From positions 32,001-96,000 of the IMG/VR virus record IMGVR_UViG_3300047564_003843: 64,000 nt of DNA. One strand, written 5' to 3'. Below the pieces are notes generated by a model. The model was not told the DNA's origin. It did not search any database and saw only the letters and a list, made by a program, of their open reading frames with translations. Every line of letters starts with the position of its first letter. Within the stretch, counting starts at the first letter, position 1. This DNA comes from a virus. Made by a program: the position numbers and the translations under genes. Positions 1 to 6,367 of the stretch are shown here, piece by piece.

Positions 1-82
1 CTTCCACTTTTACCTTCATCTTGTTTGGACAACGCGCTGGAAGGACGCATAACAAGACTCAGGTTGAGAGTTCGCCGTATTG

Positions 83-1852
83 CTACCGCGTTCCCACATT
101 TGTTAGAACTCGCTCTGCCGTCCTTCCGATTTCTACGGAAGCCGATACAGGGTCAAGCACACCTGACATTACCACGCCCGATTTATTATCGAGTAAAGAC
201 TTAGCGTAATGACCGCCATCAAAAGGAAGCCATAAAACCGCAACGCCTGACTCGGCGCAACGCTTTGTCCAATGACGAGCCTTTATTTTTTCTTCGTGTG
301 TGTATTGTCCATCTGAAACAATTACAAGTAAGCGAGCGCCACTTCCATTGAGAAGATTTAGTGCGCCATCAAGTGCGCGAAATGCTTTGTCAAACTTTTC
401 AGTTGAGTCGCTCGCAGAATAAACACGAACTTCTTCAAGGTGTTGTCCTGCCTTCAAGGTGGGAAAAACATCTGAACCATAATAAACCATCGCACATCTT
501 CCTTGAACTCTGCGAGTTGCTTCAGACATAACCCACGCAGTTGTAGCCATTGGCTTCATCGCATCTCCCATAGAACCTGAAATGTCCACCATCACGCCAA
601 CTGTAAGAGTTGTTTCTTCTGTCTGCTTACGAACTGTGCGACGCCACGCTTCTGTTTGTTGCACAATTCCGCGTGACTTCATCGCGGCATTTTGGACGAG
701 TGCGCGAGAGCGCAATCTTCCGGGAGGAATAATCGAAGTAATCTCTGTCGCATCTCTGTCACGATACTTTGCTTTTTCTAGCATCTTAGAAATCGTAACT
801 GCCGCGATGCGCTCTGCGCTAGTTGGCTTACGAACTTCTACGAGAGTCGAGTTTGTGTTTCCACCTGTTTCTGTTGTGGATTTATTGAAAACTTTTTTTG
901 CCACATCTTTGTTGTCATTTTCTTCTTTGGCTTGGTTTGCTTTTGACTTTGCTTCCTCTGCCATTTCCTCAGACATTTGTTGGTCTGATAGCGCCATACT
1001 TGTTGAAACTGACATTTCATCTGAAGCCTCTTCTAATGCTTCCATAAGAGCCTGAGCGAAAGCCTGAGCCATCTGCTCATCTTTCTCGCCCTTCTCTTCT
1101 TTCACATCGCGAATAATCTTCGCCCACTCTTTTGCTAATGGATAGAGAAGAGTTTCTCCCTGAGTTGGGAAGTCAATAATAGTTTCGCGGAAAGTTTTAG
1201 AAATCTCTCGCAACTTAGAAACAACTTCTTCACCTAAGAAATCTAAAACTTGCTTTTCGATACCTGCAACTTCATCAGCATCTATGATGCCCGCATCAAC
1301 GCGAGCCAACACTAAACCAATCGCACTAGCGCAACTTTGAGTAGTTGAAGTGCTTGCTTCCATTTCTTTTGCATCTGCGATAACTATTTCCATCGCGCAA
1401 GAGCGTAGAAAGTTTAGAGAGTCAGGTTTGTGCCAAACACCCTGAGTTTCAATGCGACCTTCTTCAAGTAACATCAAAGCTTCAACTTCATCTTTTTCTA
1501 AATCTTTGTGAGCCTTTGGTATGTCAAAAATAGAAAACTTTGCGTGAAACGCTTCGTGAAGTATTGCGCCTGTTGCTTTAGGAAACTCATACTGCTGAGT
1601 GCGCTCGCGTAAATCTCCAACCATCATTGGAGTTGTTACTTTGCCAAACGCAATCTCTGTATTTACTTCAACCTCTGCGAGCGCAGGGTTGTAACACGCT
1701 GGTGCGCTACCACCTGCACCTTCACCTACATAAGCGATTAGGTCTGACCTATCAGACCAAGTATTTACAAGTTCGCCTATCTGTGCGCCTACGCCTAACC
1801 ACTCTTTCGGAGTGGACTCTGCTCTAGTGGCAGAAATCTTTATGTGTGCCAT
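83..1852 (-). CDS. vWA (MIDAS) domain protein with N-terminal HExxH motif; CobT/MoxR-partner-like
   Basis: 589 aa; ILHEAFH, VMVDISGSM (DxSxS MIDAS), LVIVSDG; directly downstream of a MoxR-type ATPase. Confidence 0.85.
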   Translation of the reverse strand: MAHIKISATRAESTPKEWLGVGAQIGELVNTWSDRSDLIAYVGEGAGGSAPACYNPALAEVEVNTEIAFGKVTTPMMVGDLRERTQQYEFPKATGAILHEAFHAKFSIFDIPKAHKDLEKDEVEALMLLEEGRIETQGVWHKPDSLNFLRSCAMEIVIADAKEMEASTSTTQSCASAIGLVLARVDAGIIDADEVAGIEKQVLDFLGEEVVSKLREISKTFRETIIDFPTQGETLLYPLAKEWAKIIRDVKEEKGEKDEQMAQAFAQALMEALEEASDEMSVSTSMALSDQQMSEEMAEEAKSKANQAKEENDNKDVAKKVFNKSTTETGGNTNSTLVEVRKPTSAERIAAVTISKMLEKAKYRDRDATEITSIIPPGRLRSRALVQNAAMKSRGIVQQTEAWRRTVRKQTEETTLTVGVMVDISGSMGDAMKPMATTAWVMSEATRRVQGRCAMVYYGSDVFPTLKAGQHLEEVRVYSASDSTEKFDKAFRALDGALNLLNGSGARLLVIVSDGQYTHEEKIKARHWTKRCAESGVAVLWLPFDGGHYAKSLLDNKSGVVMSGVLDPVSASVEIGRTAERVLTNVGTR

Positions 1853-1896
1853 TTCGTCGTTCCTTCCATTTATGTCTTTGTCCGAGACAGGTAAAT

Positions 1897-1924
1897 ACTA
1901 TAATGAAAATGCTTTGGGTGTCAA
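1897..1924 (-). promoter_or_regulatory. sigma70-type promoter for the vWA gene
   Basis: Minus strand TTGACA-16nt-TATAGT about 45 nt upstream of the ATG. Confidence 0.7.
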
Positions 1925-1933
1925 GTAGGGAGA

Positions 1934-1968
1934 GTAGGGGGCGCGACACCCAATGAAGCGCCCCCCAC
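1934..1968 (-). other. GC-rich 11-bp hairpin with a 13-nt loop in the AAA+ gene 3' UTR
   Basis: Minus strand GTGGGGGGCGC-TTCATTGGGTGTC-GCGCCCCCTAC; no U-tract follows. Confidence 0.7.
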
Positions 1969-1995
1969 CTGTTCAACGAAAATCCGACATAGGGG

Positions 1996-3039
1996 TTAGA
2001 TTTTCGCTGGCTTGACCTCTTCCCCATAAGCCCTTGTCAGCACATCGGCAACGACAGGTCTGTCTATTTCGGGGGCAGAGGCAAGAAGGTTCGAGATAGC
2101 GAAAGTATTGCCAAAAGTTTTCGCAACATCTCGGAAAGCAATAAGTTCTCGCATTTGTGGAGACCAAGAAACTTCATTTGATACTTGCTTCTTAGCAAGA
2201 TTTTGTGAAGCAGTAACCATCGCAGTTGGAACTCCAAGCTTTTTTGCGAGCGCCCAATCAGTAGTCATTTCAACTTGAATAGTGAAACGAGATAACAACG
2301 CTTCAGAAAGTCTAACTCCCGGAGCATTTGGATTTGTCGCAGCGACTACGAAAAAGTTTTCGTGAGCCTTGATAGTGCCACGCTCAGGATTTGCGGTGAC
2401 AACTAACTCGCGTCGTCCGTCCATCAAACCATAAGCAAGTGACAAAACCTTTGGGTCAATCAAACCAATTTCGTCAATGAAATAAACTTTGCCATTGACG
2501 GCGGCATCTATCAAACCACCATCAACCCAATCGAAACCACCACTTGGAGTTTGGACATAGCCACCAACTAAGTCAGCGACTTCTGTGTCACCTGTTCCCA
2601 TAAGTGTGACAACATCTTCACCAAACGCTGCTTCGACCATCGCAGTTTTTCCGCAACCCGGAGCGCCATAAATAAGTGCGAACATTGGAGAACCACCTTC
2701 ACCTGCGAAAGACTTCATTGTCATTTCTCTCGCTTTGCGAAGTGCCATAACATCTGAGTGTTCGCCCCACTTGCGACCAAAATACAAATCGCCATTTGGT
2801 CGAGCATAAGACTCAGCGCCTTCCATACTCTCGACACTAATAACTTGCTTTGACTTGCGTGGCGCTCTGTCAGAACCACTTGCGCGAGCAACATAACGCC
2901 CCGCAGGGTTCACTACTGCTGAAAGAGTTTTTGTTGAACTCTCAGATACTGCCTGTGCAACAACTTCTTCAGCGAATTGCCATAGTGTGCTACTCCCACC
3001 TAGTGAAGAGTATTTTTCTCTAAGATTTACATTTTCCAT
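1996..3039 (-). CDS. MoxR/CbbQ/NirQ-family (CobS-like) AAA+ ATPase
   Basis: Walker A GAPGCGKT, Walker B YFIDE, AATNP, LSEALLSRF; paired with vWA gene. Confidence 0.9.
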   Translation of the reverse strand: MENVNLREKYSSLGGSSTLWQFAEEVVAQAVSESSTKTLSAVVNPAGRYVARASGSDRAPRKSKQVISVESMEGAESYARPNGDLYFGRKWGEHSDVMALRKAREMTMKSFAGEGGSPMFALIYGAPGCGKTAMVEAAFGEDVVTLMGTGDTEVADLVGGYVQTPSGGFDWVDGGLIDAAVNGKVYFIDEIGLIDPKVLSLAYGLMDGRRELVVTANPERGTIKAHENFFVVAATNPNAPGVRLSEALLSRFTIQVEMTTDWALAKKLGVPTAMVTASQNLAKKQVSNEVSWSPQMRELIAFRDVAKTFGNTFAISNLLASAPEIDRPVVADVLTRAYGEEVKPAKI

Positions 3040-3059
3040 TTCCCTATGTCCTTTTCTCT

Positions 3060-3515
3060 CTACGCTATGAGTTCTTCAGGGAACTCGCTTGCTTCACGCA
3101 CTAAACCAATGCGATAAAGCAACTTGTTGGGTGTCTTACCTGTTCGGATTTCTTCTAAATCCTTTTTTGATACTTCCACAAGGAAAGCATCTTTTACAAT
3201 CTGCCAACCACCATTGTTTATCGCATCAAACAAATCCATAGCGAAAAACAATCTTTGAGTAGCAAACGCTTCTTTCTTTTCATCATCAAGCATTACTCCA
3301 CCTAGTTCAGTTATTGCGTGATTAGGTATTGGAGAGTTACGCCATTGTTTCTTTGGGGAAGCAGGTGTTACCACTCTGCGAAACAAATTGGCAGGAACAT
3401 CTTTGCCATCTGTTGTGTAACCATCAGGGGTGATGATTATTTGCATTGTTGCTCCGGGCTTACGGAACTCTGCATAAACTCCTACGCCCTGAACTTCTTT
3501 CGTGTTATCTAGCAT
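3060..3515 (-). CDS. hypothetical protein
   Basis: 151 aa ORF with leader AACGACGAAAGGACACCCA-ATG. Confidence 0.8.
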   Translation of the reverse strand: MLDNTKEVQGVGVYAEFRKPGATMQIIITPDGYTTDGKDVPANLFRRVVTPASPKKQWRNSPIPNHAITELGGVMLDDEKKEAFATQRLFFAMDLFDAINNGGWQIVKDAFLVEVSKKDLEEIRTGKTPNKLLYRIGLVREASEFPEELIA

Positions 3516-3556
3516 TGGGTGTCCTTTCGTCGTTGTTGGTGCTAGTGAAAACTAAT

Positions 3557-4048
3557 CTACCATCTCTCTGCTAAATGTGCAAACTCTTCAGCAAAAAGAT
3601 TTTCAGGTGTCGTGGTCTTTCCGAAAACTGAGGTGTAGAGGGCTAGACCCTCAGACCACTCTTCCCACCCCCCATCTGAGGAAACTTCAACTTGCTTCCC
3701 AAAAACATCTTTGATGAGTATTAGGGTTGCACAAACTAAAGTGTCGTAAGGGTGCATTTGGGTTTTGCAAAAGTTGAAAGAAGTTTTTGCATCTTTATCC
3801 CAATCAGGTGCAGGTGGCACGATTTGAGAGAAATGAAAAGTTTCGCACGCTTGTGGTTCTAAACCATTGAAAGCGATGCGCTCGCCACTTGCTTCCCAAG
3901 CGCCAGCCTTTTCTCCAAAAGCATCTGCAACTACAATGCCATTGAGGTCAGCTTTTTTTACTAACTCGATAAAACCTTTACGAACCTTTTCATAAAGTTC
4001 AGGCTCGTTACTATCGAGACTTCTTTTTAGATAATGGGTGTATCCCAT
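3557..4048 (-). CDS. conserved hypothetical phage protein (MGYTHY...FCKT..PYD type)
   Basis: 163 aa ORF with conserved leader and upstream promoter. Confidence 0.8.
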   Translation of the reverse strand: MGYTHYLKRSLDSNEPELYEKVRKGFIELVKKADLNGIVVADAFGEKAGAWEASGERIAFNGLEPQACETFHFSQIVPPAPDWDKDAKTSFNFCKTQMHPYDTLVCATLILIKDVFGKQVEVSSDGGWEEWSEGLALYTSVFGKTTTPENLFAEEFAHLAERW

Positions 4049-4078
4049 TTGGGTGTCCTTTCGTCGTTTGACAGGAAA

Positions 4079-4107
4079 AGATTATTTCATCTTCCTGCCA
4101 TTGTCAA
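4079..4107 (-). promoter_or_regulatory. sigma70-type promoter
   Basis: Minus strand TTGACA-17nt-TAATCT just upstream of the AACGACGAAAGGA leader. Confidence 0.75.
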
Positions 4108-4169
4108 GTAGAACACCAAAACTTTTTGATTTATTTCCTGACCCTGTGGGGATAAAAATGGCGAGCGCC

Positions 4170-4239
4170 AAAAAAAAGGTGAGCAGTTTTGTGACTTGCT
4201 CAGGTCTACGTGGGATAACGACGAAGAAACCCACGTAAG
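4170..4239 (-). ncRNA. candidate small antisense RNA (seed hairpin plus intrinsic terminator)
   Basis: -10-like TAGGGT at 4246-4251; stem TACGTGGG/CCCACGTA with loop TTTCTTCGTCGTTAT; second stem TGAGCA..TGCTCA then CC and T8. Confidence 0.6.
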
Positions 4240-4266
4240 ATTTTTACCCTATCAAGGGCCTAACTG

Positions 4267-4602
4267 TCAAGCTGGGTCCCGCGGCATGAAGTCATCGAGG
4301 TCAATACCGTATTGCTCGAACTTGTCATACAACACCGACATCTCCTCAGGCTTCTCGTAGGACTCCGTTATTAACCGTGCGACATTTGCACGCTGGCTAT
4401 CCGATGCTGACTCGAGGATTTCCCAATCTACTTCTCTCCAAAATGTAGTTTCCAATACGAGCAGACCGCTAGCGTCTCCGTAGTTCCCGTCAAGCGCGAA
4501 GTAACCTAGCGAGCGCTCTACAGGCTGCGGGTCTACTATTTTTACCTCTATAGGCGAGCCGTCTTCTACAAGCTCCGCGTCTAGAATCTCGTTCTCTTCC
4601 AT
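4267..4602 (-). CDS. acidic hypothetical protein
   Basis: 111 aa ORF, upstream GGAAGGG SD-like sequence. Confidence 0.75.
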   Translation of the reverse strand: MEENEILDAELVEDGSPIEVKIVDPQPVERSLGYFALDGNYGDASGLLVLETTFWREVDWEILESASDSQRANVARLITESYEKPEEMSVLYDKFEQYGIDLDDFMPRDPA

Positions 4603-4655
4603 CCCGTTTTTTACCCTTCCGTTTCAATAAACTAATACTACCCTGCCGTTTGGTA

Positions 4656-4681
4656 TGGGTGGGGCTTTTTTACCCCACCCA
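4656..4681 (-). terminator. stem-loop after the 4695 gene
   Basis: TGGGTGGGG-CTTTTTTA-CCCCACCCA inverted repeat. Confidence 0.5.
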
Positions 4682-4694
4682 CGCCGTGCCGTTC

Positions 4695-5420
4695 TTAGAC
4701 AATCATCTCGCTGATGTCCTCAAACTTCTGAATTACTTCTTCCGTCTTTTTGGCTTCTTGGGCGAGCCGTTCTTCTCGGTCAGGGCAGTCCTCATACCAC
4801 TCCTCAGGTTCATCCGAATAGTGGGCACAGGAACATCCGTCTGCGTTATCCCTTGCCACATAATCAGCGTGGCTTTCAGGAATGTCCCACTCTTCAACTA
4901 CAACTAACTCGCCGTTCTCGCTGGCATACTTCACGCCCCAGCCTTGCTCCTCTTCGCAATCAAACTCAAAGGTAAGTTCTGGATGTTGCTCAACCATTGC
5001 TCGGTAAGCACCTTCGGCAGGAGACCAAGCCGTAGAGAACTGATAACGAACCTCGCCTCTGGTTGAAATGTTATCTTCGTAGTAGAGGTCGCTACAATCC
5101 CACTTAGTTCCCCAGTTGCGGATGTTCCAGTCATACCAGCCATCTGACTTGAACTGCATAGAGACAGCCATCTTCTCTTCAACACTTAGTTCGTCATAAC
5201 CTTCTGGCTTGTAATCACTTGCCCCAAAGTAAAGTTGCTTGTTTTCTGGTTCTATGAAGTTCCAAAATGAAAGTTCTTTTTCTGAAACTTCTTCTTTTGT
5301 TTCATTTGTTTTCCAGTCCATCCAATAAGTTGTGTGAGGCTTGGTCGCCTTTTCAACAAACTTCTTGAGGTCTGCTTCTTCTCCTGTGATAACCACAGTA
5401 TTGAATACCCAGTTTGGCAT
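4695..5420 (-). CDS. DUF1281/Api92-like ferredoxin-fold protein
   Basis: MPNW start, WYDWNIRNWGTKWD and FSTAWSP motifs. Confidence 0.75.
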   Translation of the reverse strand: MPNWVFNTVVITGEEADLKKFVEKATKPHTTYWMDWKTNETKEEVSEKELSFWNFIEPENKQLYFGASDYKPEGYDELSVEEKMAVSMQFKSDGWYDWNIRNWGTKWDCSDLYYEDNISTRGEVRYQFSTAWSPAEGAYRAMVEQHPELTFEFDCEEEQGWGVKYASENGELVVVEEWDIPESHADYVARDNADGCSCAHYSDEPEEWYEDCPDREERLAQEAKKTEEVIQKFEDISEMIV

Positions 5421-5466
5421 TTTTATCCTTTCGTCGTTTTGGATAGTTCCATTTGGAACAGGTTTA

Positions 5467-5712
5467 TTATTTCACATCTCCACACTTTTCGCAAGTGCTC
5501 ATACAACAATCGCAATAGTTTTCGTGAGAGTTGTGGGAACAGCAGTCAGTATTGACAGCAACAAAATCCCACTTGGCGTTGATTTCATAATCCTCGAAGT
5601 CATCTGAAATCCAGTCATCAAGTTTGTTGATGGCGTCGTCTTCACTCTCTGCCTCGCCCACCTCAACCGCATACTCTTTGGTGAGGGTCGCATAGATTTT
5701 ATAGGTCGCCAT
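5467..5712 (-). CDS. hypothetical protein with Cys-rich C-terminus
   Basis: 81 aa ORF translationally coupled to the upstream gene. Confidence 0.65.
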   Translation of the reverse strand: MATYKIYATLTKEYAVEVGEAESEDDAINKLDDWISDDFEDYEINAKWDFVAVNTDCCSHNSHENYCDCCMSTCEKCGDVK

Positions 5713-6041
5713 TAGTCTTCATCCATCCAATCGAATCCCTGTGGAATGATGTTGATGAATCCTTCATTTGGGTCTGAAGGATTTGTGTTCACTGCTTGAA
5801 CGAATCGCAGTCCACAAGAGTTATCGAACCACTCCATTACTTTCTTTGACATTTCTTCAGGTGTCATTTCATCTGAAGTAATAAGTGGGTCGTATCCATA
5901 CTGGCGCATTAGAGCAACCTGCTCGTCGTCCATAAGAACATAGATTTTGTGGCAGGTGTCCCAAGCGATTGCTTTTGCGCTCGCTGTGTATTCATCAAGT
6001 TTTTCTGCTTCATAAACTTTATAGTTCGACATCAAAGACAC
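5712..6041 (-). CDS. hypothetical protein
   Basis: 109 aa ORF (WDTCHKIY, CGLRF); start may be at a later Met. Confidence 0.75.
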   Translation of the reverse strand: MSLMSNYKVYEAEKLDEYTASAKAIAWDTCHKIYVLMDDEQVALMRQYGYDPLITSDEMTPEEMSKKVMEWFDNSCGLRFVQAVNTNPSDPNEGFINIIPQGFDWMDED

Positions 6042-6216
6042 CTACGCCTTCTTTGTAATCTTCAATGATGTCTGTGAGCAAACCATCAAGAAAGTTTTCA
6101 GCACGACCTTCTAGTTCGTCGGCAACTTTTTCCCATTGCTCATCTGTGATGAAAGCAGAAATCATTCCCTCGAAATCATCTTTCGAGATGGTGCTTATGT
6201 TCACTACCTTTGCCAT
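6019..6216 (-). CDS. small acidic hypothetical protein
   Basis: 65 aa ORF with AACGACGAAAGGA leader; promoter TTGCTT-17-TAATGT at 6251-6279. Confidence 0.75.
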   Translation of the reverse strand: MAKVVNISTISKDDFEGMISAFITDEQWEKVADELEGRAENFLDGLLTDIIEDYKEGVGVFDVEL

Positions 6217-6367
6217 TTGTATCCTTTCGTCGTTTTACTTGGCATAACAAACATTACATCATCTACCTGATAAAAGCAAATCTCGCCACACCTGACTAGA
6301 CATCTTGGTAATCAAAAAGTTATTTGAAAGTTTGGACTGGCCTGGGGCCCTGGACCTGGACGAAAAG

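Follow-up and report, generated by a model that had tools for sequence, protein, structure and literature searches.

A hairpin behind a phage ATPase gene displays a loop that complements, and co-varies with, the start region of the gene at the head of the predicted operon

To our knowledge, functional base pairing that joins the 3' end of a bacterial message to its 5' end has been studied experimentally in only a handful of cases. C/A-rich translational enhancers are the elements through which GcvB, a stand-alone small RNA that acts in trans on many targets, represses translation. In Staphylococcus aureus, the 3' UTR of the icaR mRNA base-pairs with that message's own 5' UTR (PMC3868564), while in Vibrio cholerae the autoregulatory small RNAs OppZ and CarZ are cut from the 3' end of their own operons, being released by RNase E and dependent on Hfq, with OppZ triggering Rho termination (PMC7398697). 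Terminator loops can themselves be active, as has been reported for the enterobacterial small RNAs SdsR, RseX and ArrS, whose loops act on the fepA 5' UTR (PMC11979758).

The locus described here lies in a 64,000-nt stretch of phage DNA, hereafter the window (bases 32001-96000 of a single 160.7-kb contig; G+C 43.5%), whose proteins are most similar to those of uncultured viral contigs and, more distantly, to those of Actinomycetia phage DSL-LC01 from lake water and of Microbacterium and Gordonia phages. A megablast search with positions 1-6000 gave no match to named phages, and the nearest named phage is a relative at the protein level only. The hosts of this phage are likely to be actinobacteria, which as far as we know lack Hfq. 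The hairpin under study, HP2, and all the genes around it are carried by the minus strand, and the features needed to follow the argument are these:

4048 to 3557, minus strand: open reading frame of 163 amino acids, with no family match
4049 to 4057, minus strand: site D, a 9-nt complement of the HP2 loop in the leader spacer of the 163-residue protein gene, just before its AUG
3554 to 3582, minus strand: weak promoter-like site of the 151-residue protein gene (TTGCAC, 17 nt, TATAAT-like TAGATT), absent from the promoter-scan output
3513 to 3523, minus strand: site A, the main candidate target, an exact 11-nt complement of the HP2 loop in the spacer and AUG of the 151-residue protein gene
3060 to 3515, minus strand: gene for the 151-residue protein, first cistron of the unit, with no assigned function
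3127 to 3135, minus strand: site B, a 9-nt complement of the HP2 loop inside the 151-residue protein gene, at codons Lys-Thr-Pro-Asn
3042 to 3050, minus strand: 9-mer in the start region of the AAA gene, candidate target of the HP1 loop
1996 to 3039, minus strand: AAA_5 (CobS/MoxR-like) ATPase gene, second cistron, stop codon 1998-1996
1974 to 2009, minus strand: hairpin HP1, which straddles the AAA stop codon, loop 1997-1986
1934 to 1968, minus strand: hairpin HP2, about 28 nt after the AAA stop codon
1914 to 1922, minus strand: site C, a 9-nt complement of the HP2 loop, 22 nt after that loop and overlapping the -35 hexamer (TTGACA) of the vWA promoter
1897 to 1924, minus strand: promoter-like site of the vWA gene (TTGACA, 16 nt, TATAGT; 11 of 12 in the promoter scan)
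83 to 1852, minus strand: gene for the 589-residue (vWA) protein, with its own promoter and its own 3' hairpin
19 to 57, minus strand: 3' hairpin of the 589-residue protein gene, whose loop octamer (45-38) complements the gene's own SD region (1868-1861)

Among described systems, icaR and OppZ/CarZ come closest. Like the icaR 3' UTR, HP2 carries a motif that complements the ribosome-binding region of the mRNA to which it belongs, and the outcome that we propose would again be less translation; the icaR motif, however, is a C-rich anti-SD, whereas HP2 has a G/U-rich seed in a terminator-type loop, and its target is a C/A-rich spacer with the AUG here and the SD or upstream leader elsewhere (PMC3868564). 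The present case also differs from icaR in that the unit belongs to a phage and has two cistrons with one element for each, and in that its support is co-variation only, with no sign of RNase III processing (PMC3868564). As with OppZ and CarZ, where the arrangement gives negative feedback, a seed at the 3' end of an operon complements a start region inside the same operon; in contrast to those released small RNAs, a 3' fragment that carries HP2 would be putative (PMC7398697). What HP2 shares with SdsR, RseX and ArrS is the loop of an intrinsic-terminator hairpin as the candidate active part, but those loops are reported to act, in all likelihood, without base-pairing, whereas the evidence for HP2 is co-varying complementarity (PMC11979758).

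Gene order and the absence of an intervening hairpin suggest that the 151-residue protein gene, the AAA ATPase gene and HP2 lie on the same transcript. The 151-residue protein had no match in Pfam, PHROG or NCBIfam, all of its Atlas leads scored below 0.9, and its AlphaFold2 model, although confident (pLDDT 83.5), had no fold match in the PDB; these results neither point to a role in DNA or RNA binding nor speak against one. The homologue of the 589-residue protein in phage DSL-LC01 is annotated as cobalamin-biosynthesis/vWA-like. A -35/-10 pair is found at the position of the vWA promoter in most relatives, and clear TTGACA-type promoters occur in relatives at the position of the weak site that precedes the 151-residue protein gene, where transcription from a promoter of this type would be predicted to leave some 35-45 nt of 5' UTR, with site A inside it. 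In many genes of the region, 5-8 nt separate a common leader, AACGACGAAAGGA, from the ATG, and among those leaders the spacer CACCCAA belongs only to the 151-residue (3515) and 163-residue (4048) protein genes. A longer version of the leader, ACGACGAAAGGA, stands before 12 or more start codons (in the window at 1853-6234 and elsewhere in the genome), and a promoter with a GCAGGAAG-like box in its spacer is common to several of the genes with this leader.

On the minus strand, HP2 consists of a 5' arm (1968-1958), a 13-nt G/U-rich loop (1957-1945) with the sequence UUCAUUGGGUGUC and a 3' arm (1944-1934), the two arms pairing over 11 bp with one G-U; an 11-bp stem at this place had been proposed in the initial annotation of this DNA. 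The local fold is worth -26.5 kcal/mol over 37 nt; the folding of the 148-nt region around HP2, taken as a whole, is not unusually stable (z -1.2). To follow the element in relatives, viral contigs were scanned with the ATPase, which yielded 80 loci with 54-100% identity. The order of the 151-residue protein gene, AAA ATPase gene, hairpin and vWA gene is kept in about 77 of the 80, the first two genes adjoin in 77, and a strong hairpin stands just after the ATPase stop codon in every one of them. Among 20 alignable homologues the HP2 stem co-varies, with 82% of the cells paired against 66% in shuffles and double changes at 9 of the 11 pairs; none of 500 shuffles was as good, and all slid registers scored lower.

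Whether HP2 ends the transcript is a separate matter. It is a GC-rich hairpin that directly follows a gene and precedes the next promoter, a position kept in relatives, as expected of a terminator; the U run that should follow the stem is absent, the tail being a mixture of C and U with no run of five T, and the terminator scan did not list HP2 in view of the missing T run and the long loop. The position can be read as that of the operon terminator because three distant relatives (L056, L058 and L063) carry there a canonical hairpin with a U tract. Terminators without a U tract have in fact been reported for actinobacteria, so that HP2 may still function as a terminator, and we infer from these comparisons that an RNA 3' end probably lies at HP2. 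Rfam had no family match for the window as a whole, and for positions 1850-2060 it returned chance-level scores only (19.5 and 13.4 bits, with thresholds of 70 and 50). We also considered a small antisense open reading frame that would begin at an ATG in the plus-strand reading of the loop, and rejected it, as this ATG is lost in L007, L011 and L018. Two observations concern the same interval in other loci. Eight distant relatives (L040, L043, L046, L047, L053, L065, L068 and L070) have the -35 hexamer of the following promoter within the 3' arm of their hairpin, an overlap of terminator and promoter of which the complementarity between loop and site C in the window may be a variation. In one sub-clade, a tRNA gene (Met-CAU or Ile-UAU) is found between the hairpin and the vWA gene (L049:1809-1883, L057:4974-5049, L066:4500-4574).

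The HP2 loop is complementary to four places on the same strand. The 11-nt match that includes the start codon of the 3515 gene, and the copy about 20 nt downstream at the -35 hexamer of the next promoter, had both been claimed in the initial annotation, and both are there, as an exact 11-mer at 3523-3513 and as the 9-mer at 1922-1914, respectively; the match claimed for the 4048 gene is likewise a real 9-mer (4057-4049), yet it is not conserved, even where the 163-residue protein is 96% identical. Site B is a fourth sense copy, which adds to those listed earlier. The 9-mer occurs six times in the window and six times in the whole 160.7-kb genome, with 0.6 expected and none of 100 shuffles reaching six, and a stretch of 2.2 kb contains five of these copies. 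A duplex search with the loop over 4.7 kb of minus-strand RNA ranked the four sense copies first (-18.1, -16.1, -14.7 and -14.7 kcal/mol), with the leader of the 151-residue protein gene at the top and the next-best duplex at -12.1 kcal/mol. Opening costs are small, and the net energy after accessibility costs is about -10 kcal/mol per site. A helix of 11 bp would be strained within a loop of 13 nt, and the conserved core has 7-9 nt. In the leader of the 151-residue protein gene, CUAGCA (3545-3540) can pair with UGCUAG (3514-3509, over the start codon and the Leu-Asp codons), which would enclose the SD and site A in a loop some 25 nt long; both hexamers are found again in L008, L009, L010 and L014 and are absent where the Leu codon is UUA (L006, L027), and given this fold the contact between loop and leader may be one of loop to loop. 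A further loop complement of 7-8 nt, ACACCCA, is formed in the window and in L005 by codons 3-5 of the 163-residue protein gene (Tyr-Thr-His; 4033-4039, minus strand), where distant homologues have other codons.

Matches of this kind could of course mean little. HP2 might be an ordinary terminator, and the resemblance of its loop to the leader a functionless product of coincidence or common descent; such a reading draws on the abundance of short inverted matches in 64 kb as well as on the lack of conservation of site D. What makes it very improbable, in our opinion, is the behavior of the two sequences in relatives, where multiple independent compensatory changes are found. At each locus the loop was compared with the 92 nt ending just past the start codon of the homologue of the 151-residue protein gene, which lies about 1.55-1.6 kb upstream. 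Complementarity persists through unrelated words and shifting registers in more than ten lineages. Loops of the GGGUGUC type match GACACCC in the spacer, and the pairs of loop and leader found across lineages include AUGGGUAUC with GAUACCCAU, CUUGGGUG with CACCCAAG, GUGUCCUUG with CAAGGACAC, UGGUUUUU with AAAAACCA, GUAGUGG with CCACUAC, and GUCGUCC with GGACGAC. Both sides have changed in L006 (loop GGGUAUC, leader GAUACCC, 9 nt in total), in L007 (loop UAGGUGUC, leader GACACCUA) and in L030 (loop UUGGUGUC, leader GACACCAA); in L018 and L022, GUAGGUG pairs with CACCUAC; the register has moved 3' into the GUG start in L026 and L052, and 5' into the SD in L027 and L011; and the words of L023, L036, L071/78 and L079, 7-10 nt long, are unrelated. 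In L079, we also noted that the hairpin loop behind the AAA gene complements the shared leader ACGACGAAAGGA (10 nt) and not a gene-specific word.

These impressions hold up statistically. Taking one representative per distinct loop, 17 of the 37 resulting classes have at least 7 nt of complementarity with their own leader, against 3.8 expected with swapped partners (permutation p<=1e-5, a value also reached when a single GGGUG-type class is kept). A sliding-window control within the same loci gave a Fisher p of 6e-20, which is conservative as other real sites are included in the null, and the mean match was 4.2 nt in the sense-strand control against 6.8 nt for the complement. Shared ancestry was addressed on the ATPase tree, where, among 15 path-disjoint sister pairs, the own partner matched better in 12, the swapped one in two, and one pair was tied (sign test p 0.006); in a single-motif version of the tree test, GGGUG in the loop and its complement in the leader changed together in five pairs and in opposite ways in none, with one tie, which is the expected direction but underpowered (p 0.06). 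Taken together, these comparisons suggest that pairing between loop and leader is maintained by selection through compensatory change. The initial annotation had proposed that the end of the operon message feeds back on its first genes and had looked to co-variation of loop and leader in homologous operons as a check; such co-variation is indeed found, by permutation and in the sister pairs alike, and supports the proposal for the 151-residue protein gene, while the 4048 gene, its other suggested target, drops out for want of conservation. The leader match is present in 23 of 26 representative loci. In roughly half of the distinct-loop classes, for the most part distant ones, the leader match is missing, so that the contact characterizes a large sub-clade and not the family as a whole. 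Cultured relatives add little: in Microbacterium phage Pumpernickel there is no intergenic space after the AAA gene, and phage DSL-LC01 has a hairpin at this place with only a 6-nt match to CA-rich leaders.

The other sites do not all behave in the same manner. Site D is missing, with other spacers in its place, from L005/L048, where the 163-residue protein is 96% identical, and from L003 (76% identical), and judging from this distribution it is probably recent or fortuitous. At site B, a codon alignment shows that every lineage with a GGGUGUC loop encodes Thr and Pro by ACA CCC and that the third base of the Pro codon follows the loop in L007, L018 and L030, whereas in lineages with other loops these codons vary freely among synonyms; the four codons lie in a conserved protein motif. 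Within the GGGUGUC-loop clade, site B thus looks like a real second partner. Site C, in turn, raises the question of whether it, and not the leader, is the partner under selection, forming an H-type pseudoknot in read-through RNA, by which termination or read-through would be tuned or the 3' end protected, or acting as an inverted repeat on the promoter, with the leader matches being secondary. Its distance from the loop, with stem and linker lengths compatible with a pseudoknot, makes it a sterically plausible partner in read-through RNA; it follows the loop in L030 and L007, it is present with at least 7 nt in 13 of the 26 representatives, and in the distant loci L040, L043 and L070 the -35 hexamer even lies in the 3' arm of the hairpin. 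Its place, however, is fixed with respect to the -35 hexamer, just after which it stays even when the hairpin is about 97 nt away (L010), and not with respect to the hairpin (+34 to +97), and it is found in fewer representatives than the leader match. Furthermore, six lineages (L006, L018, L022, L026, L027 and L031) keep the leader match without any site C, and the loop is therefore not paired solely with the adjacent downstream copy, the outcome that according to the initial annotation would have spoken against feedback on the leader. We thus consider it improbable that site C is the selected partner. Neither site B nor site C has a clear role in a model where HP2 represses through the leader.

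The contact between HP2 and the 151-residue protein gene has two counterparts in the same module. HP1, whose 5' arm is made of the last four codons of the AAA gene, exposes in its loop, right after the ATPase stop codon, a 9-mer (1994-1986) complementary to the AAA start region (3050-3042). HP1 is conserved, with both stem and complementarity changing their words between lineages, and the match between its loop and the AAA start averages 6.67 nt with the own partner against 4.85 nt with swapped ones, reaching at least 8 nt in 27 loci against 2.1 expected (p<=5e-5). A ribosome terminating at the AAA stop codon would unwind it. Similarly, the match between the 3' loop of the 589-residue protein gene and its own SD is kept in relatives through other words (own 7.32 nt, swapped 5.84; at least 8 nt in 22 loci against 6.0 expected; p<=5e-5). 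Genome-wide, across 132 crude gene calls, there is no enrichment of matches between a gene's own 3' region and start region (5.17 against 5.08 nt); the lack of a general tendency counts in favor of the reading of HP2 as a functionless terminator, and it also indicates that the design is local to the module of the 151-residue, AAA and vWA genes.

With sites A, C and D placed at or close to promoter-like sequences, one could also see in the 9-mer a DNA operator for a phage or host protein, four copies of which would share an orientation near promoters while another is inverted between GC-rich arms, and all of which would co-evolve with the specificity of the protein. The clustering of the motif is in line with this idea, and so are two facts that call for caution about RNA pairing, namely that G-U wobbles, a mark of RNA pairing, are not enriched at the duplex edges (1 of 28) and that site C tracks the promoter. 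The matched word, however, changes register and identity between lineages, and even becomes a pure SD or leader word, where a fixed one would be expected and where such shifts would be intolerable for a protein operator; the antisense copy is invariably displayed by the loop of a co-varying hairpin, and the sense copies belong to the start region of the cognate cistron; promoters elsewhere in the genome lack the motif; and the parallel elements of the AAA and vWA genes pair with gene-specific words of their own start regions. That no DNA-binding fold or family was found for the 151-residue protein is at most weak evidence in the same direction. On balance, an operator is even less probable to us than site C as the selected partner, and RNA pairing, of whatever sign, is quite probable.

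Given such pairing, a repressive contact, in which the HP2 loop would occupy the start region of the 151-residue protein gene and lower initiation, is the reading toward which we lean. HP2 would be the terminator or 3'-end hairpin of the message that encodes the 151-residue protein and the AAA ATPase, and its G/U-rich loop would provide the seed for pairing with the C/A-rich initiation region of the first cistron, which here comprises the spacer and the AUG. Pairing might occur in cis, once the full-length RNA has been made, or in trans, from a 3' fragment that accumulates, and would keep 30S subunits off the first cistron, so that the message would be translated mainly while nascent, or early translation would be shut off as 3' ends accumulate. 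HP1, over the AAA stop codon, would do likewise for the AAA cistron, and the vWA gene would have its own version. The hairpin, the complementarity and the joint evolution of loop and leader are observed, whereas the place of the RNA 3' end, action in cis or in trans and the sign of the effect are inferred. As in GcvB, a G/U-rich seed would meet a C/A-rich element in or just upstream of a ribosome-binding site, with the difference that the element is here part of the regulated message and specific to one cistron.

The sign of the effect deserves attention. In the window and in L006, L010, L011, L014, L026, L027 and L071 the duplex covers the SD, the spacer or the start codon, while the target in L009/13/15, L018, L022 and L030 is situated upstream of the SD, at a distance of 5-16 nt, and not over the SD or AUG, and direct occlusion is hence not universal. 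Enhancer targeting of the GcvB type would explain these lineages, and where the target lies upstream of the SD a stabilizing or enhancer-blocking mode is as plausible as occlusion. The same pairing might in fact be protective or activating, with the 3' loop raising or prolonging expression through its contact with the 5' UTR, either because a closed message shields its 5' end from 5'-end-dependent decay (of the RNase J or E type) or because the leader is remodelled. All of the co-variation evidence fits this possibility equally well, and the upstream targets, to which that of L023 can be added, are probably near the 5' end of the message and would leave no direct block to the ribosome; on the other hand, the lineages in which the duplex covers the initiation signals speak against it, as do the AAA and vWA elements, which pair with the SD itself and would thereby be expected to inhibit initiation. 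A protective or activating contact therefore appears unlikely to us, even if less so than the readings based on site C or on an operator.

If the contacts are repressive, one might go further and picture a "self-closing message," in which each cistron of the conserved module of these freshwater actinophage-like viruses carries, displayed in a 3' loop, a complement of its own start, and finished transcripts silence themselves in cis. This extension is tentative, and we would regard it as possible and no more than that. If true, it would amount to a translational timer made only of RNA, in need of neither a protein nor a separate small RNA, and terminating ribosomes would unmask or mask the HP1 element over the stop codon.

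As far as our literature searches and general knowledge go, no description was found of pairing between the 3' and 5' ends of phage messages. The comparative data by themselves provide many independent compensatory changes for one contact, reveal two sister contacts in the same three-gene module, and make the pairing of loop and leader a well-defined target for reporter and structure-probing experiments. Restricting the synthesis of early proteins to a short pulse is a job that phage T4 assigns to the RegA protein. If the contact described here is repressive, it would give a phage an RNA-only way to restrict an early module to such a pulse, and it would mean that terminator loops can carry gene-specific addresses, which matters for the annotation of phage genomes, as terminators would then be more than stop signals.
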